A program made the position numbers and the translations under genes. Below the pieces are notes generated by a model. That model saw only the letters and a program-made list of their open reading frames with translations. It did not search any database and was not told the DNA's origin. From Candidatus Moraniibacteriota bacterium (GTDB lineage Bacteria; Patescibacteriota; Minisyncoccia; Moranbacterales; UBA1568), in contig JAAXTX010000002.1 in assembly GCA_013336285.1 (NCBI GenBank), positions 13,730 through 77,729 of the forward strand: a stretch of DNA of 64,000 nt. Reading direction: 5' to 3'. The first letter of the stretch is position 1, and every line of letters starts with the position of its first letter. Below are positions 21,850 to 49,064 of the stretch, in pieces.

Positions 21850-22246
21850 GGGGTTGTTTAGTTTCGACAGCGAGTTCATTCAGAACCTGCAAGCCGATGA
21901 TGGGGAGTCATCGTAAAAAATCCCCACACACGATATCTGCCAACATCGTATCAAAGGTGAAGATGGCGTTCGCTAACGCGTTCTCCCCGTCTTTCGCTTC
22001 AGCTCTCGCCTAAGGGCGTGAGCCATCGGACCCCCGATGTCTGATAGGGGTCATCCGGTGTCATATCATCAGACGGACCGACAGGAGTCTTTCCTCCATT
22101 CACTTCGTCGGCCCGGCATGAAAAGAGGCCCTGGGAAGGTTTCCGTCCGCCTTTCCGCTTTCCGGGGAACCAAAGGCTGACTATGCTTGTAGACGGTTTT
22201 GGAAAAACCCGTTTGGACATGGGTGCGATTCCCATCAACTCCACAC
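21850..22246 (+). ncRNA. ssrA: tmRNA (ssrA)
   Basis: The 5' end GGGGTTGTTTAGTTTCGACAGCG matches the tmRNA 5' consensus GGGGCUGAUUCUGGAUUCGACGGG. The 3' end has the T-arm GGGTGCGATTCCCAT and the acceptor strand CAACTCC+A pairing with GGGGUUG, including the G3:U pair. An internal in-frame tag reading frame ...AFANAFSPSFASALA* ends about 21960-22012. It sits immediately downstream of smpB. Confidence 0.7.
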
Positions 22247-25056: not shown

Positions 25057-26391
25057 TTAGTTCATTCTTTTCAGGAAGAGACTGAAATGCGATCCGACAC
25101 CTTTTATGCTTTCTACCTCGAGGTCACCTTCCATCTTCCTCGCGATTTCCCGCGATATCCAAAGACCGAGCCCCGTCCCCGTGATTTGTTCAGTCTGTTC
25201 CGACTTCACCCGATAGAATTTCGAGAACAGATTCTTCAGATCCTCGGAAGATATACCCAGTCCGGTATCCGCAACCGTGACGATCACCCGGCCCGCACGT
25301 TCCTTGACCGTCACGGCGACCGTTCCTTTCGGGGTATATTTCACAGCATTGGATAAAAGGTTCACCAGTATCTGCTTCACGCGCTCGGGATCCGCATATA
25401 CGGCCGGAAAGGCCGCATCCTCGAAAAGAAACTTCAGCCCTTTCTCCTGGGCGATTATACCATAATCGACGATCAACGGCTTCAGAATTCCTCCGAGGTC
25501 CGTTTCCGTCATCCGCATCGGCAACCGACCCTGCTCAAGCCTGGACACGTCAAGAAGGTCGTCCACGAGAAGCGTCAACCTGTCCGCATTCATCGAAATT
25601 TTCCCGATATAGTCCTTCCTCTCCTCCGGACCGCACTCCGAACCGAGCAAATCGACGTATCCGCGAATTATTGTCATCGGGCTTTTCAATTCATGACTCG
25701 CCATGGAAATGAAATCGTCCTTCATCCGGTCCACCTCCTCCAGTTCAAGCGCCCGTATCGCGTATCGCGAAAATCGAAGATGATGCAGAAGCAACAGAAA
25801 CACCAGAAAAAGAGTGACGAAAGCGACACCGTAAACCCGGTCGATCGCGGACCGGACGAACGCATCGTTCTCAGCGAGAGAAAACCTGAAAAAGACAAGC
25901 CCTTTCCTTTCTCCGTCGGAATCGATGCGACGGAAGATATTCCAATATCTCACTCCCGAATCGTTGCTGATATATGCGGAACCCGCTTCCTCTTCCCACG
26001 CGAGAAAATACGGAAATTCCGACCGAATGTTTCCAACATCTTCCTGATCCGTAGATGCGATCGACCGGAAGCCTTCCCCGTTCTCAGATCGCACGTAGAC
26101 GATGATGGCGGCGATATCAGACTCCCCCAATTTCAACTCCTTCACTTTTTGCTGAAGGCGATCTGGATTTGAAAGCAGATCGGAAGAAAGCGTCCCAAAA
26201 ACCTCTTCGGCGAGTCTTGCCTTGCTCAAAAGCAACGCGTCGGTGCTCTCCTCGAATTTCTTCAGCGAATAGTAACTGTTCCAGAATATGACAGCCGTTA
26301 CCACAAGTATCAGGAAAATCGAATAGACGACAACTGATTGTTTTCGAATTAGGGGAAGCGGTTTCATGGGCGTAGATCGGTTATTTCTCAC
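25057..26391 (-). CDS. Sensor histidine kinase (two TM helices flanking a periplasmic sensor, HisKA plus HATPase_c)
   Basis: H-box SHELKSPMTIIRGYVDLL; N, G1 and G2 boxes (NLLSNAVKYT, DTGLGI, GTGLGL). No response regulator is adjacent. Confidence 0.85.
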   Translation of the reverse strand: MRNNRSTPMKPLPLIRKQSVVVYSIFLILVVTAVIFWNSYYSLKKFEESTDALLLSKARLAEEVFGTLSSDLLSNPDRLQQKVKELKLGESDIAAIIVYVRSENGEGFRSIASTDQEDVGNIRSEFPYFLAWEEEAGSAYISNDSGVRYWNIFRRIDSDGERKGLVFFRFSLAENDAFVRSAIDRVYGVAFVTLFLVFLLLLHHLRFSRYAIRALELEEVDRMKDDFISMASHELKSPMTIIRGYVDLLGSECGPEERKDYIGKISMNADRLTLLVDDLLDVSRLEQGRLPMRMTETDLGGILKPLIVDYGIIAQEKGLKFLFEDAAFPAVYADPERVKQILVNLLSNAVKYTPKGTVAVTVKERAGRVIVTVADTGLGISSEDLKNLFSKFYRVKSEQTEQITGTGLGLWISREIARKMEGDLEVESIKGVGSHFSLFLKRMN

Positions 26392-26392
26392 T

Positions 26393-27925
26393 TCAGCCCG
26401 TCGGCGGCATCCTCCTCCGGATAATCGTAAGGGAAAGAAGTACGAATAACACGGCGATTCCCGTACCGATAGCTACGTAGACGGGAAGTTCCCGTGACAG
26501 CGAAGACCGATTTCCCTCATCCGCGACTTGGACCGCGAACGTCTCCGGAGTCACGGTAACAGCCTCCGCCGTCTTGATGAACGGGAGTGACTTTGACTGA
26601 GCCGTAATACGTCCCATATTATCGGTCACGGCGACATATACTTCGTGATTTCCGTCTTCCAGGCTCCGATCAAGATCGTATTGCCAGTTGCCGCTACCAT
26701 CCGTCAGCACCGTGACGACGATCGGATCGCTGTAGATATAGAGCGTAAGATACGCGTTAGGAAGGCCCTTCCCTGAAATTACGGTCGTCCGCCTGTTCGT
26801 TTCCGGAGATATGCGATTCTCGACTTTGGTAACAGTATATCTGGTATCCTCCCTTTCCGTCTTCAATTCCGGAGCTGCGGCAATATCCTTCGCTGCCTGG
26901 AACTGAATCTTATCCCTCTTATCCCCGGGGGAATACTTCAGCGGATCGAATCCGCCCCGAACCTCCTCGCCATCCGAAAAACCGTCCCCGTCGGTGTCAC
27001 GTATGTTCAAATCGGTTCCCAAGCGCGCCTCTTCCGCATCGGACAATCCGTCCCCGTCGGCATCCATGAACACGGATTCCGGCACAGGGACGGTCCCGAC
27101 CGTCAATACGAAAGGCCTGTCCCTTGTCGCGTTCAGCTGTTCATTCTCCGTTGGAAGGAAAGCGGCCACTGATCCGCTCAGTCCTGAAACGTTTTTCTCA
27201 CTATCGATCGACTGAACGGCGTATTCATACCTCTTTCCCGGTTCCACGGCCGCGTCGTCAAAATACCTGTTTTCGGTATTTCCTATTGCCATACCGTTGC
27301 GAAAAATCCTATAACGCAAAGCCCCTATGCCGCCCGTCGATGACTGCCACTTCACTCGGACTATCGACTGACCTATAATTTCCGATCCGATATCCGTCGG
27401 AACGGTCGGCGACCGCAACGCCGTCTGCATCGATGTGCCCGTACTCAAGGTCATGCCGGTGCCTGTCGTACCCCCTCCTGAGGTCGTCTGCGAACTACCG
27501 ACGTTGGTCGCCGTGGAAGCCCCTCCGACCGAAGAGACATTGATCGCCGCAGACGTGCTCGTCGTCGAAGAAGATGCGCCGCCGGACACCGTCGTTGACG
27601 CGGAAGTCGCGGTAGGGACTGAGGTCTGATTGCTTGTCGACGTCGTACTTGTCACGTTCGACGTATTTCCAGTCGTTCTGTTGCTGACACTTCGTGTGCC
27701 GTTTGACGTGCCGGTGTTTGAAACCGATATATTCGTTCCAGAAGTAGTCGACGTACCCGTCGATATCTGCGTACTGCTACCGATAGTGCTTGTAATGGTC
27801 GAGGTGGACGATGATACGCTGTCGCCTAGCACCCTGTCGTCGTAATCATGGAATTGGATTCCGAAAAAAGCAATCCCGGCCGCAAGCAGTCCTATCGACA
27901 TGCAGGAGAAGATGATTTTTTTCAT
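26393..27925 (-). CDS. Cell-surface protein: signal peptide, Ser/Thr-rich linker, FN3-like domain, Ca-binding DxDGDG (TSP3-like) repeats, Ig-like domain and a C-terminal transmembrane anchor
   Basis: 510 aa with about 130 aa of S/T/G low complexity. It contains RVKWQ...YRIFRNG...YEYAVQSID (FN3-like), DADGDGLSDAEE/DTDGDGFSDGEE, and a C-terminal LPVYVAIGTGIAVLFVLLSLTIIRRR. Its stop is 1 nt from the HK start. Confidence 0.6.
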   Translation of the reverse strand: MKKIIFSCMSIGLLAAGIAFFGIQFHDYDDRVLGDSVSSSTSTITSTIGSSTQISTGTSTTSGTNISVSNTGTSNGTRSVSNRTTGNTSNVTSTTSTSNQTSVPTATSASTTVSGGASSSTTSTSAAINVSSVGGASTATNVGSSQTTSGGGTTGTGMTLSTGTSMQTALRSPTVPTDIGSEIIGQSIVRVKWQSSTGGIGALRYRIFRNGMAIGNTENRYFDDAAVEPGKRYEYAVQSIDSEKNVSGLSGSVAAFLPTENEQLNATRDRPFVLTVGTVPVPESVFMDADGDGLSDAEEARLGTDLNIRDTDGDGFSDGEEVRGGFDPLKYSPGDKRDKIQFQAAKDIAAAPELKTEREDTRYTVTKVENRISPETNRRTTVISGKGLPNAYLTLYIYSDPIVVTVLTDGSGNWQYDLDRSLEDGNHEVYVAVTDNMGRITAQSKSLPFIKTAEAVTVTPETFAVQVADEGNRSSLSRELPVYVAIGTGIAVLFVLLSLTIIRRRMPPTG

Positions 27926-27931
27926 ACCTCG

Positions 27932-28450
27932 TTATTCGGTTGTAACCACTGATTCCATTGTACTCGCGAGCGAGAAAAGGGCAATTCCCGTAGCTACGGA
28001 AACGTTGAGGGATTCCTTGGTACCGCGCATGGGAATTTCCAACAGGACGTCGCTTTCCCTAAGAATTTCCCCTGAAATCCCTTCCGTCTCATTACCGACG
28101 ACAAGCGCGACTCCCCGATCCGGAACGAAAGACCGATAGTCCGCACCGCCTTTTCCGCATTCAAGCGAAACGATCGCGAACCCTTCAGACCGGAGATGCT
28201 GCATAAGCGTATGAATATCATCCGCCCGTTCCCAGGGAACTGCATACTCCGCACCGAGAGCGGTCTTTGCGAGCGCCTTTTCCGCATTGGTTTTCCAGGA
28301 TCTCGCCGGATCAGCCGGAGTCTGCGTATAACCCGAAAGGAACACCTTCATGACACCGGCACCGTCCGCGGTGCGAAACATGGCGCCTACATTATGCGCG
28401 CTGCGGATGTCATGAAGAATGAGGATGATTTCCGGACCCATAGGACTCAT
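27932..28450 (-). CDS. TrmH/SpoU family RNA 2'-O-methyltransferase
   Basis: 172 aa containing HNVGAMFRTADGAGV and the SPOUT fold. Confidence 0.8.
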   Translation of the reverse strand: MSPMGPEIILILHDIRSAHNVGAMFRTADGAGVMKVFLSGYTQTPADPARSWKTNAEKALAKTALGAEYAVPWERADDIHTLMQHLRSEGFAIVSLECGKGGADYRSFVPDRGVALVVGNETEGISGEILRESDVLLEIPMRGTKESLNVSVATGIALFSLASTMESVVTTE

Positions 28451-29478
28451 TTGACCCCCGAGTCACGAAAAAGATCTTTGGCAACGTCCCAAACAGCCGG
28501 TTCCCCTTTCACTTCCTTCATCCAGTACCACCACTCCACGCCCCAGAGATACGCTTCAGGGAATCCGACCCGCTTCGCGTAATCGACGTATTCGCGAAGC
28601 AAATCGGGATTCATGGTCTTGTACTGTTCCTCGACAGATGCGTTCGCAACCCAACCGTTCGCCCACGGCTCGGCCTGTAATTCCGCGACCACGAACCGGT
28701 CCTTTCCCATTATTAGTCGGATAAGTGCCGCCTTAAGTCGATAATAATTGGGCCCGATCGGATACGTGACGTAGCCGCGGTCCGGGTTGTATACTTTCCG
28801 ATACATCGTCGACCCCAGGATATCGCCTCGGGCGGCGGCGGCGGTCCAGGTCGAAAATTCCCCACTGTCCGTTATCAGTATCGGTCGGGATGGATCAAGG
28901 GATTTTACGTACGCGATCTCGGAATCGAAAAAATCCCTGGAAAGCGTCGGACACTCACCGAAAAACGTCACGAACGGTTCGTTCTCGACCTGCCAGACTT
29001 TCAACTCGGGTCGATCGCGGTAACGGGTAACGACTTTCTCGATGAAATCCGTCAACCGCGCTTCCCGATAGGCGTCATTACCGTCGTCCTTAACCCAATT
29101 CGGAATATGACATTCCGGCCATCGCGGCGACCGTTGTCCCACGACCAGGATCACGTCCGCTCCCCGTTTTGCCGCCACGTCGAGCATCCAGTCCGTGTCG
29201 GAAAAATCATAGGTTCCCCGTTCATTCTCGACCAGATCCCAATAGATCGGAATGCGGATCTTCCGAACGCCGAGATCGTCGAGCACAGCGACATACGCCT
29301 CTTTCCAATCGACACCGAGATCCCGTGCGTACCGCGCGGAAAACGTGACCCCGAGCGAGACGTCGCTGCGCGGCGCGGGACCGGGCAAGTTGAGATACGC
29401 GAACAACCCTCCGGCCGACAAGAGCAGAACGAGTACGGCGATTCCGAAAACCTTGAGGATGAATATCCAGGATTTCAT
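28447..29478 (-). CDS. Membrane-anchored clan GH-A glycoside hydrolase (TIM barrel; family uncertain)
   Basis: An N-terminal transmembrane segment, then IPIYWDLVENERGTYDF... and the catalytic NEP in WQVENEP. It overlaps the TrmH stop by 4 nt. Confidence 0.55.
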   Translation of the reverse strand: MKSWIFILKVFGIAVLVLLLSAGGLFAYLNLPGPAPRSDVSLGVTFSARYARDLGVDWKEAYVAVLDDLGVRKIRIPIYWDLVENERGTYDFSDTDWMLDVAAKRGADVILVVGQRSPRWPECHIPNWVKDDGNDAYREARLTDFIEKVVTRYRDRPELKVWQVENEPFVTFFGECPTLSRDFFDSEIAYVKSLDPSRPILITDSGEFSTWTAAAARGDILGSTMYRKVYNPDRGYVTYPIGPNYYRLKAALIRLIMGKDRFVVAELQAEPWANGWVANASVEEQYKTMNPDLLREYVDYAKRVGFPEAYLWGVEWWYWMKEVKGEPAVWDVAKDLFRDSGVK

Positions 29479-29493
29479 AAACCTATCGATATA

Positions 29494-30435
29494 TCAGAGA
29501 AACCCGTCCGTACTTCCGCCGTACGCGATAAGCCATATCCCGAGTGACAACAGGATGATCGCGAAACATTTCCGAAGCATGCCGGATCGGCTGATGTGCT
29601 CACGAAATATGGAAGGGAAACGGATGGAAAGCGTCATAGCAAGCAGGAACACCAGACCGTACTGAGCACCGTTCATGCCCTGGATGAAAGTCGCCGGCCC
29701 GAGCGAGACCGCATAAGAGACAAGGATGGTCCCGGCACCTCCGAAACCCTGATTCAGAAGGAAAAATGCCGCGGTTCCGACCGTCCGTTTCGCAGAGCCT
29801 GAAAATCGTTCCTGACCGGAGAGGATAGACCTGCGCGATGAGGGCAGCAAGAGCAAGGCGATGCCACCGAGAAACATACCGAGTTTCGACCAGACAAAAC
29901 CAGTCGCGAAATCCGAAAGAAGATAGGATTCCTTGAGCATTATGTAAGAGGCGGCGAAGAGTGCGCCGGAAACGAGCACGTCCCGTGTGAAACCTGGACC
30001 ACGGATACCTTTTCCCCCGGTAGCGAGCAATACTCCGCCTGACACCAATAACGCAAGGGAGAGCACATCGACGGGAGCGACGGAACCGCCCGAGGAGAAA
30101 GAAGAAAAAGCGGAAAGAGCGAACAGGAACCCGGTCGTCGCTACGCCGACAAGCGGTGCCACACGAGAAACCTCACTTCGTTTTATGGCCCGATAAGACG
30201 AAAGCAGTCCGAACAGGAAAAGAAAACCTGAAAACGTGCCGAACGCGATAGCTGTCGGTATAAAAAAGACGAACCCGAACGGCACGAGTGCCAGAAACGG
30301 CAGGCTCGTCAAAGCCGTAAAGAACGCATACAGGGCGGGTGCTCCGATCCGTCGTTCCGAAAGAAGGAATTTGTCGGATATGGACGCGACCGCGAGGAGC
30401 GCATACCCCGTGAACGCAACGAGTAACCAGGACAT
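29494..30435 (-). CDS. Polytopic membrane protein, EamA/DMT-like transporter
   Basis: About 10 predicted transmembrane helices in two halves. The start is assigned to MSWLLVAF... Confidence 0.45.
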   Translation of the reverse strand: MSWLLVAFTGYALLAVASISDKFLLSERRIGAPALYAFFTALTSLPFLALVPFGFVFFIPTAIAFGTFSGFLFLFGLLSSYRAIKRSEVSRVAPLVGVATTGFLFALSAFSSFSSGGSVAPVDVLSLALLVSGGVLLATGGKGIRGPGFTRDVLVSGALFAASYIMLKESYLLSDFATGFVWSKLGMFLGGIALLLLPSSRRSILSGQERFSGSAKRTVGTAAFFLLNQGFGGAGTILVSYAVSLGPATFIQGMNGAQYGLVFLLAMTLSIRFPSIFREHISRSGMLRKCFAIILLSLGIWLIAYGGSTDGFL

Positions 30436-30519
30436 ATGTTCATTTTCTCCAGTATACCGTACGCAAGGAAAAAGAAAAAAGGGACCGGACATCTTCATGT
30501 TCCGGTCCCGTGTCTTCTT

Positions 30520-32061
30520 TCAGTGACTCTCGAGATAAAGCTTCTTTTTTTCCAAATCCTCCGCGATGAGTTCAAATCCCCGGAAACCGTCATCGGGACG
30601 GACCACGCCGGAGTACCGCGGAATCCCGTCCATCATGAAGAGATACGGATATCTCCTGTTCGGATCAAGCGTTCCCCAGTATGCCATCAGTTTTCCGTAA
30701 GCGTTATTCTTGACATTGCGGATCGATTGACCAACGGAACGACCACGACCGATCCGATACCGGACCGATGTCGCCCAAAACGGAGCCTGGTGAAACACAT
30801 CCTGCGCCTCTTTCGGACTCATCTTCTCGAACCAATCCCGACAGACATGCCGGAGATCATACTCGTTCGGATCAAACGTCAGCAGACTCCCGTCCTTTAC
30901 CGCATCCTCATAATCCCTTGACCCGGGAAGCGGCGTGACGCAGAACAGCGACGTCAAGTCCAGAATCCGATTAAAGCCCATGACCTGCTCCTTTATTTCT
31001 TGCCGGGTCTGAGTCGGAAAACCGAGCATGACACCGGAGTTGACAAGAACGCCGTACTGACGCCATTGACTGGCGATTTCCTGATACCGTTCCGGCTTAT
31101 TATGTGGTTTATTCACATCTTTCAGCGCCCCAGAATCAAGACTTTCCATGCCGGTAAACACATGGGTCACTCCCGCCAGTACCAAATCACGCATTTCGCG
31201 CTCGATTCCGGCAGCCGAATCGATCTGGATGAAAATATCCAACGGCCTACCGGTCGCTTTCAGAAGTTTCTGATTCAACCGGATGAGTCCCTCTTTCACG
31301 ATCTGATAATGATATGAGCGACGGAAATTATCATCCCCCAATATAATCCTGTGCCCGTTCCGATGTGTCCGCTCAATCCAATCGAGCACAACTTCCGGAT
31401 CGCGGGCACGACATGCGTCCACGTTGCCGCCACGAAGATTGATCACGCAGCAGTACGAGCATTTGAAGGGACAACCTTCGCTTGTGTTTATTCCCACCAT
31501 CGGGTTCAAACACCGCTCGTGCTCATGCGGCCCGGAAAGTGCAGGGAGCGGCGCGATACTGATATCGACATACTCCTTCTGCCAGTAGAACGGTTTCAGA
31601 CCGCCATTCAGAAAATCCTCGACGATCCGCCCGACCGTGATTTCGCCTTCGCCGACATTGAATACGATCCCATATCTGACCATGTAATCGTACGTTTTCC
31701 AATCGGCCAACGTCACGCCGGGACCGCCGATGACGACCGTATAGCCGTATCCTCTCATCCGTCTGGCGATATCGATAGCCCGTGCGAGCTCGTACGTCCG
31801 AGCCGTAATGAAGATCAACGAACTTCGCTTCGGCAGACGACGGATGTCCCCCACATAGCTCTCGCCGATTTCCAAACGTTCTTCCACAAGAATAACGTCA
31901 CACGCTACCCCGAGACCGGCGGCGGCGGCTTCCGCTATCGCCTGGAGCACTTTCGGTGCCGGAGATTTCATCAGGATATAGCGATATTGCAACAATCTTC
32001 CGCCATCATCGTAGGATGATGGGGAGATTATAACTACGTTTATCTTTTCCGCCATCATCAA
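30520..32061 (-). CDS. B12-binding-domain radical SAM protein (class B rSAM)
   Basis: 513 aa with an N-terminal Rossmann-like B12-binding region and the radical SAM motif CPFKCSYC (CxxxCxxC). Confidence 0.8.
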   Translation of the reverse strand: MMMAEKINVVIISPSSYDDGGRLLQYRYILMKSPAPKVLQAIAEAAAAGLGVACDVILVEERLEIGESYVGDIRRLPKRSSLIFITARTYELARAIDIARRMRGYGYTVVIGGPGVTLADWKTYDYMVRYGIVFNVGEGEITVGRIVEDFLNGGLKPFYWQKEYVDISIAPLPALSGPHEHERCLNPMVGINTSEGCPFKCSYCCVINLRGGNVDACRARDPEVVLDWIERTHRNGHRIILGDDNFRRSYHYQIVKEGLIRLNQKLLKATGRPLDIFIQIDSAAGIEREMRDLVLAGVTHVFTGMESLDSGALKDVNKPHNKPERYQEIASQWRQYGVLVNSGVMLGFPTQTRQEIKEQVMGFNRILDLTSLFCVTPLPGSRDYEDAVKDGSLLTFDPNEYDLRHVCRDWFEKMSPKEAQDVFHQAPFWATSVRYRIGRGRSVGQSIRNVKNNAYGKLMAYWGTLDPNRRYPYLFMMDGIPRYSGVVRPDDGFRGFELIAEDLEKKKLYLESH

Positions 32062-32214
32062 CCCTCCTTTTTTGGATCAAATTATTAACGGTACGCGTAT
32101 AGCGCCCTTTGCAGTGATGTCACTCAATCACAGATTGCGAAAACAGTCAAAGCTCGCGACCCCTCAGCGACATTTCATGTTCGAAAAACGACTATGTCGG
32201 TCATTTCGATCCCA

Positions 32215-32991
32215 TCAGCTTCGGGCTATCTTGTCGTAGTACATGCGAACACCGGAAATCCAACTTTGGACGCTCTCGGGACTGTGTCCCGCACACGTGT
32301 TTCCGCATTTCCACACGATCAGTTTCTCCGGACTGCTTGCCTGTCGTTTGGCGACAAGTTCCGCGATTCGATCCCCGACGGCATGCGCCGCCTCATCCGC
32401 TGAACCGAAGCACGCGTATCCCATAGCCATACCAAGACTTCCCGAACCTTTGAGTCCCCAATAGTTCCTGCAGTCTCTTCCGGCCAGTGTCGGGGCATGC
32501 TTCCCCCAATCCGATTCCTTCTTCGCGATACCGACTATGAGAGCAGCTATCTCGCGGTCGTACTCCGCTATGACTGGCGCCATTTCCTCGATAGGATATC
32601 CGAAAACAACGGCACGGACCTCATCTTCCAAACCGCTCGGATCACCTTCCTCGGGAATCCCGCCCGTAGCGAGCAACTCCTTGCAGTGGTCACGCTCAGT
32701 CGAGAAATTCTCAATCGTTTCCGCTTCGGCCCCGAACACATACCGGAATTCCTTTCCGGCAAGGACATTGCAGATACCGTTCCCATCGACCGAAACCGTT
32801 GCGGCAGGACTCATGTCGACCGTATCCTGTCTCGGTGAAATGGCAAGTACGGACATTCCTAGCACGAAAAAAATGGCAGAAAGAAAAACGGCCCGTTTAA
32901 GGCGTCGTACAAATACCTTTCTGTTTATTGCTTTTCCCCGACGTTTATTTTCCTCCGTCCCCTCCGAAACCACCGTTTCGGTTTTCGGCAT
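32215..32991 (-). CDS. Membrane-anchored protein with GH73-like (glucosaminidase-type) domain, paralog A
   Basis: An N-terminal transmembrane segment is followed by the candidate catalytic motif IAKKESDWGKH (compare GH73 A..ESGWG) and a C-terminal W.CG..CAGHS...WIS.V..YYDK block. Confidence 0.45.
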   Translation of the reverse strand: MPKTETVVSEGTEENKRRGKAINRKVFVRRLKRAVFLSAIFFVLGMSVLAISPRQDTVDMSPAATVSVDGNGICNVLAGKEFRYVFGAEAETIENFSTERDHCKELLATGGIPEEGDPSGLEDEVRAVVFGYPIEEMAPVIAEYDREIAALIVGIAKKESDWGKHAPTLAGRDCRNYWGLKGSGSLGMAMGYACFGSADEAAHAVGDRIAELVAKRQASSPEKLIVWKCGNTCAGHSPESVQSWISGVRMYYDKIARS

Positions 32992-33175
32992 AGTTATCCG
33001 TTAAGGATCGTTCTGCCCTCCATGCATTTTCCCTCCAGGAACGCCATCACAATATATCATGAAATAGTCTCTCGAAAAAGTATCAGCGATGACCTGTCAA
33101 GGCGCGGTTATACAGGTCGCTACCGGATATTCCTTCAAACAAGCCGGAGAATTGATATGAATAGGTCGCGGTCAT

Positions 33176-33202
33176 ACGATAAAACGGCCCGGAAAGCCGT
33201 TT
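33176..33202 (-). terminator. Intrinsic terminator after paralog B (AACGGC-CCGGAAA-GCCGTT followed by a T-run on the minus strand)
   Basis: Hairpin with an adjacent A/T run. Confidence 0.5.
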
Positions 33203-33228
33203 CATTCGAATCTCGACATGGCCAAGAT

Positions 33229-34368
33229 TTACTCCTCCGTCGGAGCGGAATCATTCAGCTTGTCATAATACAACTCCACGTCGGAAATCCATTTCTGAAC
33301 GCTGTAAGAGCTATGTGCCGCACATGAACTTCCGCATTTCCAAATGATAAGCTCTTGCGGCGTATCGATATGATTATTGACGATAAGCGTCTCAAGGCGC
33401 TTCCCTACGGTCGAGACGGCATCTTCACGACTATTGAAACAGGTATGCCCCCCCGTACCCATCAGTTTCCTAATTCCGCGATACCCCCAATAGTTGTAAC
33501 AATCCTGGCCGTCGAGTACCGGAACGCGCACTCCCCAGTTCGACTCCTTCTTCGCGATTGCGACGAGGAACATAGCGACGGTCCGATCCTGCTTGACGAT
33601 CTCAGGTACCATATCCTCAATCGGATACCCGGCGACCATTTTCCGGACGCGAGTCTCGAATTCCTTCGTATCCGGATCCTCCGCGGCAAGTTCCGCAAGC
33701 AGTTGTTCCGTATCGAATACCGAGGTACCCGAATCTACCAAGGGTTGTTGCGCCGGCTGTTGTACGTATACGATATTTGCCTCTTCAGCCTGTGCGCCGT
33801 TTCCAAAGGAATGTTGCAGAAGCAGAGCCGAAACCATGCCAAGTGCCATCGCTCCGACCAGCGGCACGTATGCCGCCTGTCCGGATGAAATGCCCAATCT
33901 GAAGCCGGACATTCCCGTAGCCAGATTGTCCCCGAAATCTCGTGACCGGTTCTCAAGCAATCGCCAAGCCGCTTCGACTCCCGAAAAATCAGGCAGTTCC
34001 GGAATGTTCGGGAGGGTAATGACAAACGGACGGCGATATTCCGTGACGCCGGAAAAACCGGGTTTCCGAAGCGCGTCAACAGTTCGGATGGGAGCGAAAA
34101 ACATGGGCTTCTCGCCGAGAACATCGATGGCGTGTGCGGGATACAGAATAGAATCACCCGAAAAGGAAGCGACCCGAAATCTCCTTCCGCGCGATATCAC
34201 CTCGGATCGGTATTCCCGAAGGGATGTCCGGCCCACGAAAGAAGACGCGACTAATGGTCGCTTGGAAGAAACACTGTCGATCGATGTCTGTTTTTGTTCT
34301 TTCAGAGGAAAGACGTTCGGGTGCATAGAAGGCTTTTGTTTTCTGCCGTCCATTCTCGGACGGGACAT
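33229..34368 (-). CDS. Membrane-anchored protein with GH73-like domain, paralog B (long cytoplasmic N-terminal region)
   Basis: 379 aa. The C-terminal 200 aa align with paralog A (MVAGYPIEDMVPEIV...AKKESNWG...IIWKCGSSCAAHS...WISDVELYYDK). A transmembrane helix lies near residue 185. Confidence 0.45.
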   Translation of the reverse strand: MSRPRMDGRKQKPSMHPNVFPLKEQKQTSIDSVSSKRPLVASSFVGRTSLREYRSEVISRGRRFRVASFSGDSILYPAHAIDVLGEKPMFFAPIRTVDALRKPGFSGVTEYRRPFVITLPNIPELPDFSGVEAAWRLLENRSRDFGDNLATGMSGFRLGISSGQAAYVPLVGAMALGMVSALLLQHSFGNGAQAEEANIVYVQQPAQQPLVDSGTSVFDTEQLLAELAAEDPDTKEFETRVRKMVAGYPIEDMVPEIVKQDRTVAMFLVAIAKKESNWGVRVPVLDGQDCYNYWGYRGIRKLMGTGGHTCFNSREDAVSTVGKRLETLIVNNHIDTPQELIIWKCGSSCAAHSSYSVQKWISDVELYYDKLNDSAPTEE

Positions 34369-34382
34369 CCCTGATCCGTTAT

Positions 34383-34787
34383 TTATTTCGTCGCTGCCGA
34401 CAGTCCCAGCTTATCGATGAAATATGCCTCCACATCCGGCGTACCGACATAGCATTTCCCTTCCGCATAGAGAAAAGGCACTCCGATTTCCTTTTCCTGC
34501 AAACCGCACGACTTCGCCTTCGCGGCCATCTCTGCCGAGTTAGCCTGGTCATGCCAGACTTCCTTCTTCGAAAAGCTCATTTTTTCCGATGCCTTGTTGT
34601 CATCGAGGAATTTCTCGACATCCTTGCAATGCGGACATTCGACGCCGTAGTAGAAAACGATTCCCGTAGAGGCGTCTGAGCTTGCGGAATCCGAAGTGAT
34701 ATTTTGAGACCGGTTCTGAAGCATGAAGCCCCCGACAAACACGGCCACTGCTAACAATGCGATCACCGCGATAGCCTTCTTATCCAT
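34383..34787 (-). CDS. Membrane-anchored thioredoxin-fold protein (CPHC active site)
   Basis: An N-terminal transmembrane segment, GVECPHCKD, and a second Cys pair later in the sequence. Confidence 0.6.
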   Translation of the reverse strand: MDKKAIAVIALLAVAVFVGGFMLQNRSQNITSDSASSDASTGIVFYYGVECPHCKDVEKFLDDNKASEKMSFSKKEVWHDQANSAEMAAKAKSCGLQEKEIGVPFLYAEGKCYVGTPDVEAYFIDKLGLSAATK

Positions 34788-34900: not shown

Positions 34901-35752
34901 TCAGACTCCTGTCCGGCTTTCGGAACGGTTTCGCCACACGAAGATGACAACTAACGAGACAGCCACTGATAACATACCGAGTGACAAAGCCTGCCCCATG
35001 GTCATCCAACCGAAGAAAAGACCCGTCCCCGGATCCGGCTCACGGAAGAACTCCGCTATGAATCGAGCAACGGAATATCCGATAAGGAAAACAGCCGAAA
35101 CCGAACCGTCGGGAAGCTTTCGTTTCCTTAAGAAAGCCAGGAAAAGGAACAATACGACTCCCTCCAGCAGTGCTTCGTACAATACCGACGGATGACGCAA
35201 CTCCCAGGTTCCGCCAGTGGACGGGTCGGGCAGATATATGCCCCACGGCACGTCGGTTTTCCTACCGACAAGTTCCAGGTTCAAAAAATTTCCGATCCTA
35301 CCGAGAAACAGCGCCAACGGTACGCCGGATACGACGAAATCGGCGAATGCGAGCATTCCTAGCTTTCTGATCCGGACGAAGACAAGGAATACGATCCCCG
35401 AACCAATAAGCGCACCGAAGAAGCTCATCCCGTGGATGCCAGAATATGACCCGGTGCCGGAATCGATCGGCAAGAATAACGACATCGGCGTTGAAAGTAG
35501 CGACGGATCATACAGTAACGCGTATCCGAGTCGGCCGCCGAGAAGCGTTCCGAAAAATATTGAGAATGCGGCATCCCATACGGTCTCCGTGTCAAAACGG
35601 GAATCCGCCTTTCTTGCGCGACGGAGCAGGAAAGCCGTCGCCACAAGGAATCCGAGGATGAAGCAGATCGCATACCATCTGACAGTAAACGGCCCGGCCG
35701 TGAGAGCGACCGGGTCGATACATTCCGCAAAGTACCGCCATGACTCTGACAT
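34901..35752 (-). CDS. lgt: Prolipoprotein diacylglyceryl transferase
   Basis: The Lgt signature GRIGNFLNLELVGR and a 7-TM architecture. Confidence 0.85.
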   Translation of the reverse strand: MSESWRYFAECIDPVALTAGPFTVRWYAICFILGFLVATAFLLRRARKADSRFDTETVWDAAFSIFFGTLLGGRLGYALLYDPSLLSTPMSLFLPIDSGTGSYSGIHGMSFFGALIGSGIVFLVFVRIRKLGMLAFADFVVSGVPLALFLGRIGNFLNLELVGRKTDVPWGIYLPDPSTGGTWELRHPSVLYEALLEGVVLFLFLAFLRKRKLPDGSVSAVFLIGYSVARFIAEFFREPDPGTGLFFGWMTMGQALSLGMLSVAVSLVVIFVWRNRSESRTGV

Positions 35753-39460: not shown

Positions 39461-42400
39461 TTAATCCCAGCGAAGATCGTAGAGATCAGACTCTACATCG
39501 TGTCCCTTCGCTTCGTGTTCGTAAGACTCCGCTATCGAGCGTAAAAGCGCAGCCGTGCGTGGCCATCTCACCTTCACTGCGTCGCTCAGCTTTTTATATT
39601 TCTCGACCAGTACTCGCTCCTGCTTGCCTCCGTCATTCAAGCCACGTGATGTCACGCCACGGCTGTTGTAAATCTCGTTCTGGATATGGTCGTCGATAGT
39701 TTGATTGTTGAGCTGTTCGATGACGTTGCGAACAGTGGTATGCGGCCATGTGCCGTCCGGGTCTGCTGGCGCATGCGCGAGGATAAAGCCAATTTGCAGA
39801 TCACAGCCGATGACGTGCTTCGTCTCCTCGCATCGCTTACGGGCCGCGGTGATCCAATCCATGAGGGCTTTTTCGTCCACACCCCCATCATCCTTGAGGC
39901 CCGGCAAGAGATACCAAGAATCCAACACCTCGCTTGTAACTCGCCACCTGCGCTCGCGTATCTCTTCGTCCACACCTTCCTCGCTCGGGTTTTCTGCGCG
40001 GTCGTCGCGCTTGTAAATAAAGCTGATCAGTTGGGCAAAGAAAGTAGGGTCGGTCTGCAACGCTCGGTGAAGTGCCATTGGCGCGGCAGTATACCGCTTG
40101 AGTTCGTCGAACAGAGCAGCAAAAGGCCATTCGAGCTTTGCCATTTCGTCTATTGAAAGTTCGTTTTTTTCGTACAACTGTCGGAATACATGCCCAAGAT
40201 GGAATTCGTCCATCACGTCGCCAAGCGTCTTTTTGTCCTGCGCGTTCAGAATCTCTTGGAGCAGACGCTGTAGCAGTCTGTTTGGAACATCAACGTCCGG
40301 GCTACCAGCAACATGAAGCGCAGCGAACGGCCGCTTGGCATCAAGGAGCTTCTCGACTGCGATCGGCACGTCGGTGTTTTTATCCGCGCGAGAATAACCG
40401 CTTGCTTGTTTCCAATACGCAACCTCTTCTTCCTTGCCTCGTGCCGCGACCGCACTCCACGTCTCAGCACCTTCTGGCAAACCGAAATAGAGAAGCGCAC
40501 ACGCTTCCGGCGAGTAATTGCCTTGTGTTTTCAAACGCTCAATGGACTTGTCTATCCACTCAGCACCTACGACCTCGACGCGACCCATTGCGTAGCCGCG
40601 CGTGAGCAACGGCATATCTTTGACGCGCGTGATGAGCAAATCTAAAACAGTGTTGTCCTCCTGCTCGTCGCGCACAGCCATCGCAAGAGCATGGCCGAGT
40701 ACGCCCTGATACTGAATCGTGCTCGAAAACTCCAAAACCTTTTCAAACGGAGTATTGTCCAAGACTTCCCGAGCTGCAGCCTTTTGAGCCTCTTTTACCG
40801 AAGTGTCCTTTGCGTCATATTCTTTCGACTCTCCCTGGGGCAAGCGCGGCCATGGCGTACTCAAAAGCCAACCGACGCGCTCAATAACATCCGTGGGAGC
40901 GAATTTCTGCAGTATTTGATTCAAATCTGGCACATGGACGCGCCTATCCGCTTCGCCGTAGCTGTTAATCCAATTGAGAGCCTCGCGTGTTTTCTGAAGC
41001 AGTAAGTCCCTCTCTTCTTTTGAAAAAGCATCAGGCTCCATTGCGAGTATTGTAGTTAGCAACCGCTCCCGCGTATCTGCAGGGATACGCGTAAACTCAT
41101 CCAGTGAAGCAACGGCGTTCTCTCGGGCACAGGCAAGGTCCTGCAGCATAGGTAACAACCCCCTTAAATACTCGTTGTATTCAGCGTTCGTCTCTTGCTC
41201 AAGACCACGGCGATAACCGCCCGTCTCGCGCCAGCGAAAGCGATGCGACTCGCTGATACTGCCACCGCCATAGTATCTTTCGGCGAATTTCCAGACCAAC
41301 TTAGGATACATAGTGATCAGCTTTTTCAATACTTCCAAACGCTCCTTCGGTTGTGCGTGCGTCTGCGGAAGCCCGGGCAAAAACACTTCGCCTAAACTAT
41401 TCGCTGGGCGATTGCTCCGGCCTCCTCCGAGATCAATATTCGCCAATTCAATAAGCACATATACTGCACGCGCGAAATATTCCGTGCTCCACGCGATGCC
41501 TTCGAGAGACCACAGCAGCCCAGAGTGGCGGCATTCTCCCACCACGCCTCGCACGTCATCTTTCATAAGGTCTTGGAAAATGCTCGGCTGCTTTGCGATC
41601 CATCCCTCAAGAGATTCCATGAACGCGTCCGGTGAAGCCTCAGAAAGCAAGGGAGATGCCTCCTTGAGCGATGACCATGCCTCCCATGTGCTCGCGTTCG
41701 TAAAGACAGTGCGGACGATGCGATCGGCAAACGCTTGCGCCGACGCGACGCTTGGAGACTGGCTGCCATGTACCGCGATCAATACGAGCGATTCGACAAG
41801 GCCGGTCTGCAGCCACTCGGAATATGGATTACCTTTGCCATAGATGGAAGCTGCCCACCGCTTCTCCGGTTCAAGTTCGTACTTTGGGTCGGTTTTAGTG
41901 AGCACTGATAGAAGCGCGGTCTCGAATAGTTTCAGCTGACCTTGCGTGAGATGCGGAGCGAGGAGATACCAAGCATCGAGCGGCGACTTGATCATCCATA
42001 CGCTGCCGACCTTCCGAACAGGCGCGTCATCAATCGATAAAAAAGGAGTAAGCTCTTTGATGAATGCGTCGTAGCCCATGCCGGTAAGAGCCTCGACAAT
42101 CTGACGGTCGCCATCCTTATGCTCATCCCATGCGTTTGCAATCAGCACTGGCAGGAGGATCTTCGCCGATTCAGCTTTAGCCCAGGCAGGCGCGCTGACG
42201 GCGTTCGATTGAAATAAATGGCGACGCAATACCGGAATGCTACGTCCCGAGTCCCGAGCGATTCTCAAAGCATCAGCTTCGGAGAGACCACCATCGTGTA
42301 AGAGCTTCTCGACCACACTGCGCTGCGGTCGCGCGAGCCGAAGCACACTGCGAATGCCGACAACGGTCGCGTCCATGCTTATGAAAACGTGATGGCCTTT

Positions 42401-43258
42401 GGCGATGGCAGCATGAGCGCCGTCCAAGCATTCCCCGGGGCCTGCAATGACGAGCGGATAGTTTGGAAACGCCTGAACGAGCTGACGCATCTCCGCCTTG
42501 TTCTCCACGACCACGCACCGCGCGAATGCCTGTGCCTTTTCCGTCTCAGGAAGCGTCGCGATTGCAGCGTACAGGAATGCATACGCTTCGTCGGGGTGAT
42601 CGCCCTGCACTTCAAGAATAGCCGGACGCTCGGCAATCCATTTCTTCACGGCCTCCGCGTCTCTCGTGCGCCCTCCGATGACAAGCTGCGGTGTCATCAC
42701 CGGCTTCGTTCCCACAGACCATTCCTCCCACACCGCCTCCAAATCACGTATACCATTCGAGACGACCTTGCCGATCTGACGCGCAAGCCATAGACCGACC
42801 GCCGGAGTGATGGCAATCCATTGCTCAAGCGTATCGGCAGCGATCACTTTGACGTCCTTCCATGCGCCGAGCGCCTTCTTCGCTGCTTGCCATGCGTTGC
42901 GCTTGGGGAATGAGCGCGGAGTCACAAAGACGAACGTCGTATCGGACGCGGTCATCCCAAGCGGATCGGCGGCACGCTTGGCATAGTCGGCTTCGGCTTT
43001 CGTCTGCGCCGACTTCTCGGTCCCTACCTCCCAGCCTGATGCGCCGGTCGGAAGGAATGGAGAGGTTACCGGCGTCTTGAGCCGTCCGTCCCATCCGCCA
43101 GTCGCTACGCTATTACCACTAGGAAAATCGAACTCCTCAACGGCATTGGCCGTGTGAGCTAGAATGAGGCGTCCCACAAGCTCCGGCAGGGTGTCCTGGC
43201 AGTGCCGCTGTTGCGTGTTGGCCCAGTTTGCGATGTCGGTTGCGGTAATCCACTTCAT
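39461..43258 (-). CDS. Large orphan hypothetical protein (1265 aa), no recognisable catalytic motifs
   Basis: A single long uninterrupted ORF with its own AT-rich 5' and 3' flanks and somewhat lower GC than its neighbours. It is Trp-rich and mostly alpha-helical by composition. The N-terminal ~110 aa have a D...GGWDG...GWEVGTEK pattern. Confidence 0.65.
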   Translation of the reverse strand: MKWITATDIANWANTQQRHCQDTLPELVGRLILAHTANAVEEFDFPSGNSVATGGWDGRLKTPVTSPFLPTGASGWEVGTEKSAQTKAEADYAKRAADPLGMTASDTTFVFVTPRSFPKRNAWQAAKKALGAWKDVKVIAADTLEQWIAITPAVGLWLARQIGKVVSNGIRDLEAVWEEWSVGTKPVMTPQLVIGGRTRDAEAVKKWIAERPAILEVQGDHPDEAYAFLYAAIATLPETEKAQAFARCVVVENKAEMRQLVQAFPNYPLVIAGPGECLDGAHAAIAKGHHVFISMDATVVGIRSVLRLARPQRSVVEKLLHDGGLSEADALRIARDSGRSIPVLRRHLFQSNAVSAPAWAKAESAKILLPVLIANAWDEHKDGDRQIVEALTGMGYDAFIKELTPFLSIDDAPVRKVGSVWMIKSPLDAWYLLAPHLTQGQLKLFETALLSVLTKTDPKYELEPEKRWAASIYGKGNPYSEWLQTGLVESLVLIAVHGSQSPSVASAQAFADRIVRTVFTNASTWEAWSSLKEASPLLSEASPDAFMESLEGWIAKQPSIFQDLMKDDVRGVVGECRHSGLLWSLEGIAWSTEYFARAVYVLIELANIDLGGGRSNRPANSLGEVFLPGLPQTHAQPKERLEVLKKLITMYPKLVWKFAERYYGGGSISESHRFRWRETGGYRRGLEQETNAEYNEYLRGLLPMLQDLACARENAVASLDEFTRIPADTRERLLTTILAMEPDAFSKEERDLLLQKTREALNWINSYGEADRRVHVPDLNQILQKFAPTDVIERVGWLLSTPWPRLPQGESKEYDAKDTSVKEAQKAAAREVLDNTPFEKVLEFSSTIQYQGVLGHALAMAVRDEQEDNTVLDLLITRVKDMPLLTRGYAMGRVEVVGAEWIDKSIERLKTQGNYSPEACALLYFGLPEGAETWSAVAARGKEEEVAYWKQASGYSRADKNTDVPIAVEKLLDAKRPFAALHVAGSPDVDVPNRLLQRLLQEILNAQDKKTLGDVMDEFHLGHVFRQLYEKNELSIDEMAKLEWPFAALFDELKRYTAAPMALHRALQTDPTFFAQLISFIYKRDDRAENPSEEGVDEEIRERRWRVTSEVLDSWYLLPGLKDDGGVDEKALMDWITAARKRCEETKHVIGCDLQIGFILAHAPADPDGTWPHTTVRNVIEQLNNQTIDDHIQNEIYNSRGVTSRGLNDGGKQERVLVEKYKKLSDAVKVRWPRTAALLRSIAESYEHEAKGHDVESDLYDLRWD

Positions 43259-46544: not shown

Positions 46545-46650
46545 AATTCGAAATTCGAAATTTTTTCGGACTTGATGAACTTTATAGACTTTCGACTTTA
46601 CGGACTTTATAGACTTTCTAGCCTTTATGGACATTACGGACTCTGACGAC
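46545..46650. repeat. Tandem degenerate array of the GACTTTCGACTTT / TTATAGACTTT / TTACGGAC minisatellite spanning the sufC-sufB gap and the sufB start
   Basis: AAATTCGAAATTCGAAA...TTTATAGACTTTCGACTTTACGGACTTTATAGACTTTCTAGCCTTTATGGACATTACGGACTC. This is the largest copy in the window. Confidence 0.65.
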
Positions 46651-48018
46651 TACAAATACGGATTCTCCATGCCCGAGCGAACGATCCATGGGACCGGTCG
46701 CGGACTTTCTGCGTCAGTCGTCCGTCAGATTTCCGAGATCAAGGACGAGCCCGAATGGATGCTCGATTTTCGGCTGAAGTCATACGAACTCTTTACGAAA
46801 GCGTCGAGACCGAAGTGGGGACCCGATCTCTCTGCGCTCGATTACGATTCCATCACCTATTTCAGGAAATCCACCGAGTCCGCCGTGAAGAGCTGGGACG
46901 ACCTCCCGCCGGAAATCCGCGAGACGTACGACCGCATCGGCGTTCCCGAGGCGGAAAAGGATTTTCTTGCGGGAGTATCCGCACAGTACGAAAGCGAGGT
47001 CGTCTACGAAAGCGTCCAGAAGGAACTGACCAAACAGGGCGTCATCTTCTGCGATATGGATACCGCGGTCCGGAAACATCCCGATATCGTGCGAGAATAT
47101 TTCGGTACGCTCGTGCCGCCCGGAGACAATTTCTCCGCCGCGCTCAACTCCGCGACCTGGTCCGGCGGCTCGTTCGTGTACGTCCCGAAGGGCGTCCATG
47201 TCACGCTCCCGCTACAGGCGTATTTCCGCATCAATTCCGAATCGTTCGGACAGTTCGAACGGACGCTCATTGTCGCCGACCAGGGCAGTTTCGTCCACTA
47301 CCTCGAAGGCTGCACCGCCCCGATCTACCGCACCGATTCGCTCCACTCCGCTGTGGTCGAGATCTTCGTAAAAAAAGGCGCTCGTGTCCGCTACACTACC
47401 GTCCAGAACTGGAGCGGTAACATCTATAACCTGGTTACCAAACGTGCGAAGGCCGAGGAAGACGCGATAATGGAATGGGTCGACTGCAATCTCGGCTCCA
47501 AGGTCACCATGAAATACCCGGCGGTCATCCTTGCGGGTCGCGGCGCGCGCGGCGAGATGCTTTCGCTCGCCCTCGCAGGCAAAGGCCAGCATCAAGATAC
47601 CGGCGCGCGCATGATCCACCTCGCCCCCGACACGCACTCGCGTATCGTCTCGAAATCGATATCCAAAGATGGTGGCCGTTCATCCTTTCGCGGCGACATC
47701 CGTGTCGCCAAGAACGCCTCGGGCTGTTCTTCCTCGAGCGTCTGCGACGCACTCATACTCGACAAGGACTCCCGATCGGATACGTACCCATCGCTTCGGA
47801 CCGATGTCTCGGATGCCCGGCTCGCGCACGAGGCAACCGTCGAGAAAATCGGAGAGGAAAAACTCTTCTACCTCGCTTCCCGCGGCATCGGCACGGACGC
47901 TGCGGAAGGTCTTCTCGTCAACGGATTCATCGAACCGGTGGTGAAGGATCTTCCCATGGAATATTCACTTGAGCTCAACCGGCTGATCAATCTCGAGATG
48001 GAAGGAAGCGTGGGATAA
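46627..48018 (+). CDS. sufB: FeS cluster assembly protein SufB
   Basis: 463 aa with the conserved SufB beta-helix and C-terminal region. The annotated ATG lies inside the minisatellite, so the true start may be downstream. Confidence 0.9.
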   Translation: MDITDSDDYKYGFSMPERTIHGTGRGLSASVVRQISEIKDEPEWMLDFRLKSYELFTKASRPKWGPDLSALDYDSITYFRKSTESAVKSWDDLPPEIRETYDRIGVPEAEKDFLAGVSAQYESEVVYESVQKELTKQGVIFCDMDTAVRKHPDIVREYFGTLVPPGDNFSAALNSATWSGGSFVYVPKGVHVTLPLQAYFRINSESFGQFERTLIVADQGSFVHYLEGCTAPIYRTDSLHSAVVEIFVKKGARVRYTTVQNWSGNIYNLVTKRAKAEEDAIMEWVDCNLGSKVTMKYPAVILAGRGARGEMLSLALAGKGQHQDTGARMIHLAPDTHSRIVSKSISKDGGRSSFRGDIRVAKNASGCSSSSVCDALILDKDSRSDTYPSLRTDVSDARLAHEATVEKIGEEKLFYLASRGIGTDAAEGLLVNGFIEPVVKDLPMEYSLELNRLINLEMEGSVG

Positions 48019-49054: not shown

Positions 49055-49064
49055 TTCCGCTTCT

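Follow-up and report, generated by a model that had tools for sequence, protein, structure and literature searches.

Does a radical SAM (S-adenosylmethionine) gene that stands among cell-envelope genes of a Moranbacterium belong to them in function? The question arises from a stretch of 64,000 nucleotides of Candidatus Moraniibacteriota bacterium (GenBank assembly GCA_013336285.1, contig JAAXTX010000002.1, positions 13,730 to 77,729 of the forward strand), here called the window; coordinates are counted from its first letter. Every gene from about 25 to 45 kb of the window lies on the minus strand. In this region the radical SAM gene is flanked by a gene for a membrane protein of the DMT (drug/metabolite transporter)/EamA superfamily and by the genes of two tandem membrane-anchored paralogs, A and B, which resemble glycoside hydrolase (GH) family 73; a thioredoxin-fold protein and lgt are encoded upstream. 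An earlier interpretation (the sequence-only reading) had joined the radical SAM, DMT, paralog and thioredoxin-like genes into one envelope-modification module, in which a B12-dependent radical SAM enzyme would modify a glycan or a lipid. Our analysis points instead, with a probability of about 0.72, to two separate things: an inherited gene backbone with the GH73-like paralogs and an orphan radical SAM insertion, which together form no module. The features concerned are the following.

27932 to 28450, minus strand: SpoU/TrmH RNA methyltransferase, a housekeeping gene (PF00588, E 4e-32)
28447 to 29478, minus strand: membrane-anchored glycoside hydrolase of clan GH-A (TIM barrel), weakly GH42-, GH10- and GH5-like (PF02449, E 1.5e-8; PF00331, 1e-7; PF00150, 1e-6), with an N-terminal hydrophobic segment
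29494 to 30435, minus strand: divergent DMT/EamA-superfamily membrane protein of 313 aa (HGA31_00610), with several hydrophobic segments
30470 to 30520, minus strand: intrinsic terminator directly 3' of the radical SAM stop codon (sequence read, inverted repeat, RNA fold)
30520 to 32058, minus strand: radical SAM enzyme of class-B architecture (PF04055, E 2.4e-18; structure model; Foldseek)
32059 to 32214, minus strand: 153-bp intergenic leader of the radical SAM gene, read from the sequence
32215 to 32991, minus strand: paralog A, 258 aa (NCBI HGA31_00620)
33229 to 34368, minus strand: paralog B, an open reading frame (ORF) of 379 aa with its likely true start at 34326
34383 to 34787, minus strand: small membrane-anchored thioredoxin-fold protein of 134 aa with a CPHC motif and GVPF (hydrophobic residues 1-26)
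34901 to 35752, minus strand: lgt, prolipoprotein diacylglyceryl transferase (PF01790, E 3.2e-63; TIGR00544, 201 bits against a cut-off of 119)

The sequence-only reading had placed its ORFs correctly: all of them are real and lie on the minus strand where it put them. Several starts need correction. The DMT ORF spans 29494-30498 (334 codons) and most likely starts at 30435, which gives 313 aa as in HGA31_00610 and its homologs. For the radical SAM ORF (30520-32061) the start is most likely the ATG at 32058 or 32055. Paralog B most likely begins at M15; its additional, presumably cytoplasmic region, which had been put at ~180 aa, is present and comprises ~150-165 aa. An AI-2E family transporter gene, a MutY-like gene and MnmA are located further upstream of lgt.

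We scanned the GTDB species representatives for the paralog family, which yielded 338 relatives, and retained 80 loci. All window proteins were then searched against these loci by tblastn; frequencies count the loci with enough flank. None of the 80 loci carrying the paralog family has a radical SAM homolog within 8 kb. The other genes recur in the order MnmA-MutY-AI2E-Lgt-(CPHC thioredoxin-like)-paralog B-paralog A-DMT-GH clan A-SpoU. Upstream of paralog A we find paralog B in 63/65, lgt in 57/65 and the AI-2E gene in 55/65 loci, and the CPHC thioredoxin-like gene in 42/65 (E<=1e-5). Downstream, the DMT and GH genes each occur in 54/66 loci and SpoU in 47/66. Three Moranbacteria contigs display the longer string Dus-MnmA-MutY-AI2E-Lgt-Trx(134-138 aa)-B-A-DMT-GH-SpoU-HAD-VanZ-L20 without a radical SAM gene; in L008, one of the three, the DMT gene was not called either. 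The conservation of the cluster in related genomes, proposed earlier as a check, is therefore found for lgt-Trx-B-A-DMT-GH-SpoU across the 80 loci, and the radical SAM gene belongs to it in none. Since the string includes the unrelated housekeeping genes MnmA, MutY and SpoU, adjacency in these compact genomes is weak evidence for a common function. The spacing illustrates this as well. Between the DMT and GH genes there are 15 bp, and the GH and SpoU genes share 4 bp, so that close packing unites functionally unrelated genes here. We propose that the backbone from MnmA to SpoU, including lgt, the CPHC gene, both paralogs, DMT and GH, is vertically inherited in Moranbacteria.

Among the loci compared, contigs titled 'uncultured Bdellovibrionales bacterium' (third-party annotation records; L017, L024-L027 and many others) carry the Moranbacteria-specific gene string. 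This synteny suggests that the titles are taxonomic mislabels.

The radical SAM gene occupies a variable position of the backbone. The gap between paralog A and the DMT gene measures 12-214 bp in 47/54 loci and 0.6-3.2 kb in the remainder. Five of the large gaps were inspected, plus that of L012, which lies on the same contig as L006, and all of them held unrelated cargo. The cargo-bearing slots (L078 8577-9779, L089 7399-8583, L074 8503-11376, L015 8811-11903, L022 9128-10703 and L006 3259-5846) include a GH1-like beta-glucosidase with the signature FPKDFLWG..SSYQIEGN, a 957-aa protein, a TrmB regulator with small ORFs, and others. In the window the slot is 1.78 kb long and the radical SAM gene is its sole occupant. 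The two closest relatives, with radical SAM proteins 87% and 80% identical to that of the window, have the gene in or beside the same slot, upstream of DMT and GH, and with it come further genes: a patatin-like one, TrmB and one for a 671-aa protein. In the closest relative, L003, the radical SAM gene lies downstream of paralog A, and the 671-aa protein, which has no Pfam match, is encoded between the two (L003 697-2712).

Beyond these relatives the enzyme is rare. An exhaustive search of 1.84 billion representatives returned 6539 matches at E<=1e-3, of which 65 reached E<=1e-30; full-length matches that extend through the C-terminal domain are limited to ~9 clusters. Roughly 25 genomes carry the gene. 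Distant homologs (29-55% identity) were found in six unrelated contexts, none of them with a DMT or GH73-like neighbour; they adjoin an integrase with hypothetical genes, follow Obg, RelA/SpoT or a UvrD that contains an intein, or lie between PCMT and Methyltransf_21.

Transcription signals also set the gene apart. Directly behind the stop codon an intrinsic terminator is formed by a stem of GGGACCGGA and TCCGGTCCC (9-bp GC) with an 11-nt loop, followed by TTTTTTCTTTTT. It folds with -27.2 kcal/mol (z = -5.7), and 0/200 shuffled sequences were as stable. The automated scan missed this terminator with its 11-nt loop; it was found by reading the sequence and confirmed by folding. At the other end, an AAGGAGG Shine-Dalgarno sequence precedes the ATG by 5-8 nt. 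Its own Shine-Dalgarno sequence and terminator suggest that the gene is transcribed as a unit by itself. Rfam gave no cobalamin or SAM riboswitch ahead of it, either at gathering or at E<=1, and the 153-bp leader contains no precursor like those of ribosomally synthesised and post-translationally modified peptides, only ORFs of 4-9 codons. The region's only Rfam match, traJ-II, was sub-threshold and inside coding sequence, and was rejected.

How, then, does the proposal of a single module fare? It accounts for genes that are all close together on one strand, for the concentration of envelope-related functions at the locus, and for the position of the radical SAM gene in the two closest relatives, again upstream of DMT and GH and, in L003, downstream of paralog A. 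Two considerations weigh against separating the gene from its neighbours: the same slot is used in both closest relatives, which makes a local functional link in this subclade possible, and a leaky terminator would possibly permit read-through into the DMT gene. A common module is nevertheless hard to reconcile with 80 loci that have the conserved string and lack the radical SAM gene, with the six unrelated contexts of its distant homologs, with the strong terminator ahead of the DMT gene and with the unrelated cargo of the slot in other species. The presence of MnmA, MutY and SpoU in the same string marks the adjacency as backbone synteny, and cobalamin binding by the enzyme is at most putative. 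Synteny has thus already largely refuted a module centred on the radical SAM enzyme, and we consider the one-module explanation highly improbable. That the enzyme is accompanied by no partner biosynthetic genes had been recognised correctly by the sequence-only reading.

A variable slot and a sporadic, very rare distribution could also be expected if the gene, in place of a metabolic role, had a mobile accessory or anti-phage one and occupied a genomic hot spot. A phage-type integrase is encoded two genes away from one homolog, and toxin-antitoxin pairs are near others. The protein gives a weak PADLOC match to PDC-M51A (E 1.4e-4, 18.9 bits), and a 1265-aa ORF, a second insertion in the backbone, weakly matches PD-Lambda-4_A. 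These PADLOC matches are, however, very weak and confined to the generic Rossmann/CxxxCxxC region. A repeat search found no direct repeats flanking the insertion, the phage collection held no match for the protein, a conserved partner gene was not observed, and the GC content at the gene shows no anomaly. Compared with L003 the radical SAM protein is 87% identical, whereas paralog A, DMT and GH are 62%, 60% and 77% identical. A radical SAM identity of 80-87% against 60-77% for the conserved flanks fits vertical inheritance under constraint; the excess over the flanks could reflect either stronger constraint or more recent exchange. On balance a mobile or anti-phage gene seems very unlikely, and we favour a lineage-specific insertion of a single gene, probably an enzyme gene with its own transcription unit, in the variable slot between paralog A and DMT.

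The 1265-aa ORF (39461-43258, minus strand) has no Pfam match and lies between MnmA and Dus. These two genes are directly adjacent in L007 and L008, so the ORF represents a second lineage-specific insertion in the backbone. Its PADLOC match (profile of 1283 positions; E 5e-4, 15.7 bits) is very weak, and it may be a defence gene.

The inserted gene itself encodes a radical SAM enzyme of class-B architecture, as stated by the sequence-only reading, which had noted its CPFKCSYC motif. The full motif is GCPFKCSYCC. Across 59 sequences C195, C199 and C202 never vary, and the GG and GEGE motifs are conserved as well. As these three cluster cysteines are the only conserved ones, no auxiliary cluster is expected. 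The AlphaFold2 (AF2) model has a mean predicted local distance difference test (pLDDT) score of 95.2 and a predicted template modelling (pTM) score of 0.94. It comprises an N-terminal Rossmann-like domain, in which residues 4-158 form beta-alpha repeats (pLDDT ~97), a TIM barrel core with the CxxxCxxC motif and a helical C-terminal domain. A Foldseek search resulted in full-length matches to AprD4, CysS, MgmA, TsrM, TokK and OxsB (E 1e-17 to 1e-11). AprD4 is the best of them, with E 1.7e-17 and TM-scores of 0.65 (TMq, query) and 0.72 (TMt, target). Placement in a well-characterised family such as BchE or HpnP-like enzymes, which had been named as part of what would refute the module, did not result: none of the NCBIfam subfamily models, among them HpnR, PhpK, MgmA and the ladderane radical SAM enzyme, came near its cut-off (best scores: HpnJ 51.4 against 577.6, TIGR04072 49.9 against 360, BchE 33.2 against 481, AprD4 23.2 against 500). 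Sequence and model together indicate a predicted class-B-architecture enzyme of no characterised subfamily.

The N-terminal domain had been described as a cobalamin-binding Rossmann domain. AF2 and Foldseek bear out the Rossmann-like fold; cobalamin use is putative. PF02310 scores 17.4 bits against a cut-off of 32.1, and precomputed annotation assigns only PF04055 to close homologs. AprD4, the best structural match, does not bind cobalamin in spite of its Rossmann-like domain (PMC12931638). The label 'cobalamin-binding' therefore describes an architecture and is not an established property of this protein. No cobalamin genes were seen among the ~30 window ORFs scanned. Chemically, the enzyme probably generates a 5'-deoxyadenosyl radical from SAM on a [4Fe-4S] cluster, and its substrate would be unrelated to the neighbouring genes. 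Elsewhere in the window SufB/D (46627-48018, plus strand) and a SufS-type cysteine desulfurase (48996-50282, plus strand) are encoded, so that the capacity to assemble Fe-S clusters for radical SAM enzymes exists.

We now turn to the backbone and to its most characteristic genes, the two paralogs. The tandem pair described by the sequence-only reading is real: A and B are 48% identical across the C-terminal 145 aa (BLASTP, E 1e-49), which is far above chance, and the motifs AKKES(D/N)WG and W.CG..C..HS...WIS.V..YY.K are present in both. The common domain measures ~141-145 aa and is thereby shorter than the ~200 aa assumed before. The family of paralog A comprises at least 1379 clusters (90% identity) at E<=1e-3, nearly all from Moranbacteria. 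In an alignment of 112 sequences the residues P133, K157, K158, E159, S160, G163, C174, N176, C194, W227, K228, C229, G230, C233, W244 and Y251 (numbering of A) are invariant, and E159 corresponds to E275 of paralog B. D173, E200 and H236 are nearly invariant.

The AF2 model of paralog A, built from the same 112-sequence alignment, has a pLDDT >94 for the C-terminal domain (residues ~118-258). We compared this domain with the PDB using Foldseek. The top five matches are all GH73 glucosaminidase domains with probabilities of 0.93-1.0. The first is the domain of Ecd09610 from C. difficile (8yxk_A; TMt 0.65, root-mean-square deviation 3.2 Å, 149 columns), followed by FlgJ from Sphingomonas (3vwo, 2zyc, 3k3t) and Salmonella (5dn4). 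In the family profile, KKESdWGkr..NYWGyKG is aligned to ALESGWGQR..NVFGVK of FlgJ, which places E159/E275 opposite the catalytic glutamate of FlgJ. GH73 is defined by an invariant general-acid glutamate on the central helix and by a mobile beta-hairpin lobe, and the glutamate of the FlgJ ALESGWG motif is at the E184 position described in PMC4752226. At the sequence level, NCBIfam FlgJ models were matched by 20/30 diverse relatives, all below the cut-off (best E 1.7e-5), and PF01832 was touched weakly by 3/30 (best E 0.08). Two family members are already called 'glucosaminidase domain-containing protein' at NCBI. A profile search of the PDB returned FlgJ with E 0.43 only, so that the fold evidence is required. 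The GH73 likeness suspected by the sequence-only reading is hence upheld by fold and motif, and the C-terminal domains are supported as predicted divergent members of a GH73-like group.

Several other matches were rejected. Chymotrypsin structures found in a single-sequence PDB search of the paralogs were due to chance, and a sigma-H match in the PDB profile search of the family was spurious and came from the low-complexity N-terminal part. The phage collection contained no match for the GH73-like domain, and a PHROGs search returned a single weak endolysin match.

A number of results weigh against this assignment. The best Foldseek E-value is 8.7e-3. The Pfam and NCBIfam hidden Markov model searches of the window paralogs A and B gave no match, and the PF01832 gathering threshold was reached by 0 of 30 relatives; by the Pfam threshold the family is formally not a member of GH73. 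Glucosaminidase, muramidase and lytic transglycosylase activities, furthermore, are indistinguishable by sequence. The paralogs might accordingly have the lysozyme fold and be lytic transglycosylases or muramidases, or inactive peptidoglycan-binding or regulatory proteins. A Glu-Ser dipeptide is typical of family-1 lytic transglycosylases, and the E-S motif of the paralogs also resembles soluble lytic transglycosylase (SLT)/GH23 proteins. SLT structures (Cj0843, SltB) do appear lower in the Foldseek list, with probabilities of 0.03-0.21 compared to 0.93-1.0 for the five GH73 domains, and the sequence-level matches are specific to the GH73 domain of FlgJ. Inactive proteins would be at odds with the invariance of the glutamate across 112 sequences. 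No second catalytic carboxylate, a residue of the beta-hairpin in GH73, was assigned in the paralogs, although the nearly invariant D173 and E200 may be candidates; such a residue is not universal in GH73 either, being present in FlgJ, Auto and TM0633 and missing from some other members (PMC4752226). Taken together, a lysozyme-fold protein outside GH73 appears unlikely. We prefer a GH73-type domain that most likely cleaves the glycan strands of peptidoglycan, with the invariant glutamate of KKES(D/N)WG as the general acid. Likely roles of the pair would be wall growth and the separation of daughter cells.

Both paralogs are N-terminally anchored in the membrane, as had been recognised earlier, by one hydrophobic segment each (residues 31-54 in A and 165-186 in B). 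Paralog A has a short basic N-terminus with eight Lys/Arg residues in the flank of the segment, a linker with two conserved cysteines and the C-terminal domain. According to the positive-inside rule its domain is located outside the cell. Paralog B presumably has the same orientation, given the domain that it has in common with A; its cytoplasmic N-terminal region may couple the activity to a cytoplasmic partner. The cysteines of both paralogs are all C-terminal to the anchor, and paralog B contains exactly four, all invariant. In view of the single anchor and of cysteines that all lie beyond it, two disulfides are the simplest reading of the pattern. The four cysteines and H236 could also form a metal site in place of disulfides, which would weigh against this part of our model. 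C-terminal domains are 59-76% identical among A-type and 66-85% among B-type sequences, compared to 45-55% between the types, so the duplication is old. We therefore picture A and B as a probable ancient duplicate pair of single-pass membrane proteins with a putative cysteine-stabilised GH73-type domain of lysozyme fold.

The thioredoxin-like protein and lgt upstream of the pair were named correctly in the sequence-only reading. The former shows the CxxC active site, cis-Pro loop and N-terminal hydrophobic anchor of DsbA/thioredoxin-fold oxidoreductases. It also has a second conserved Cys pair; CPHC, C94, C112 and the GVPF cis-Pro loop are invariant in 4 orthologs. Its Pfam matches stay below threshold (Glutaredoxin 19 bits against 22.9, DSBA 13 against 25.6), and Thioredoxin_4 is weak. 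The window ORFs scanned included neither a DsbB nor a VKOR partner. Because the gene is fixed directly upstream of those of two exported proteins with invariant cysteines, the CPHC protein is a plausible oxidase for the two disulfides that they most likely contain.

The EamA/DMT-like transporter was likewise retained, on indirect evidence. The window protein has no direct PF00892 match even at E<=10; homologs with 28-36% identity over 97% of the length (E 1e-40 to 1e-15) carry PF00892 or are named DMT/EamA. The assignment would thus be one of transitive homology only.

The data permit a bolder interpretation, which we regard as doubtful though worth stating. The CPHC protein and the paralogs B and A might constitute a redox-matured, transmembrane-regulated machine for peptidoglycan remodelling that is specific to this lineage of the candidate phyla radiation (CPR), with four cysteines and a histidine defining a new disulfide- or metal-stabilised GH73 subfamily. 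The radical SAM enzyme might found a new, very rare and possibly cobalamin-independent branch of class-B architecture, in organisms thought to lack cobalamin synthesis.

Three further features of the window were observed. A full-length tmRNA gene (RF00023, 122 bits) is located at 21850-22246 on the plus strand, and SmpB occurs in the same conserved region of related loci. At 26393-27925 the minus strand encodes a protein of 510 aa that combines an extended Ser/Thr-rich region with bacterial TSP3 repeats, a Big_13 domain and a hydrophobic segment at either terminus. A histidine kinase gene (25057-26391) comes next, and the two recur together behind SpoU in several of the related loci.

In compact CPR genomes, adjacency on the same strand says little about function until it has been compared with synteny in relatives. 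At this locus the check separates a conserved backbone from the insertion of a single gene. The paralog family, which numbers at least 1379 clusters (90% identity) and 338 matches among GTDB species representatives, is almost fixed in Moranbacteria, where it probably ranks with the main peptidoglycan hydrolases. To annotate it would improve models of CPR cell-wall metabolism. The radical SAM enzyme offers a clean, rare target for enzyme discovery with a high-confidence model, and no context that we saw points to its substrate. The literature searched for Moranbacteria, peptidoglycan and radical SAM contained no relevant work. Of most interest is the Pfam-invisible, cysteine-rich GH73 relative as a fixed B-A pair by lgt and the CPHC gene, followed by the rare orphan radical SAM enzyme; neither is categorically new.

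With the class B radical SAM enzymes (AprD4, CysS, MgmA/QCMT, TsrM, TokK, OxsB; COG1032) the window protein shares the Rossmann-like N-terminal domain with GG and GEGE, the TIM barrel with CxxxCxxC and the helical C-terminal domain. It differs from them in an identity of only 12-17%, in the absence of partner biosynthetic genes and in the lack of auxiliary-cluster cysteines. The DMT protein resembles EamA/DMT transporters (PF00892) in its length of ~310 aa, its multiple transmembrane segments and an identity of 28-36%, whereas the protein and its close relatives give no direct match to PF00892. The CPHC protein is similar to DsbA-type and small membrane-anchored thioredoxin-fold oxidoreductases of Gram-positive-type envelopes with respect to the CPHC motif, the GVPF cis-Pro loop, the N-terminal anchor and the position of its gene next to genes for cysteine-rich exported proteins. 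Unlike DsbA, it has only 134 aa and no helical insertion domain.

The closest parallel for the paralogs is GH73 (the C-terminal domain of FlgJ, Auto, LytB, AtlA, Ecd09610). The predicted likeness extends to the lysozyme-like alpha+beta fold, the invariant glutamate at the end of the central helix in a (L/K)ES(G/D/N)WG motif, the beta lobe after this glutamate and the aromatic-rich C-terminal helix. In contrast to these enzymes, the paralogs are too divergent in sequence for PF01832 and carry four invariant cysteines (C174, C194, C229, C233). To our knowledge, the WKCGxxCxxHS block and the four cysteines do not occur in characterised GH73 enzymes. The domain is moreover tethered by an N-terminal transmembrane helix and not by wall-binding repeats, and its genes form a fixed tandem pair, B then A, beside lgt and the CPHC oxidoreductase gene across Moranbacteria.

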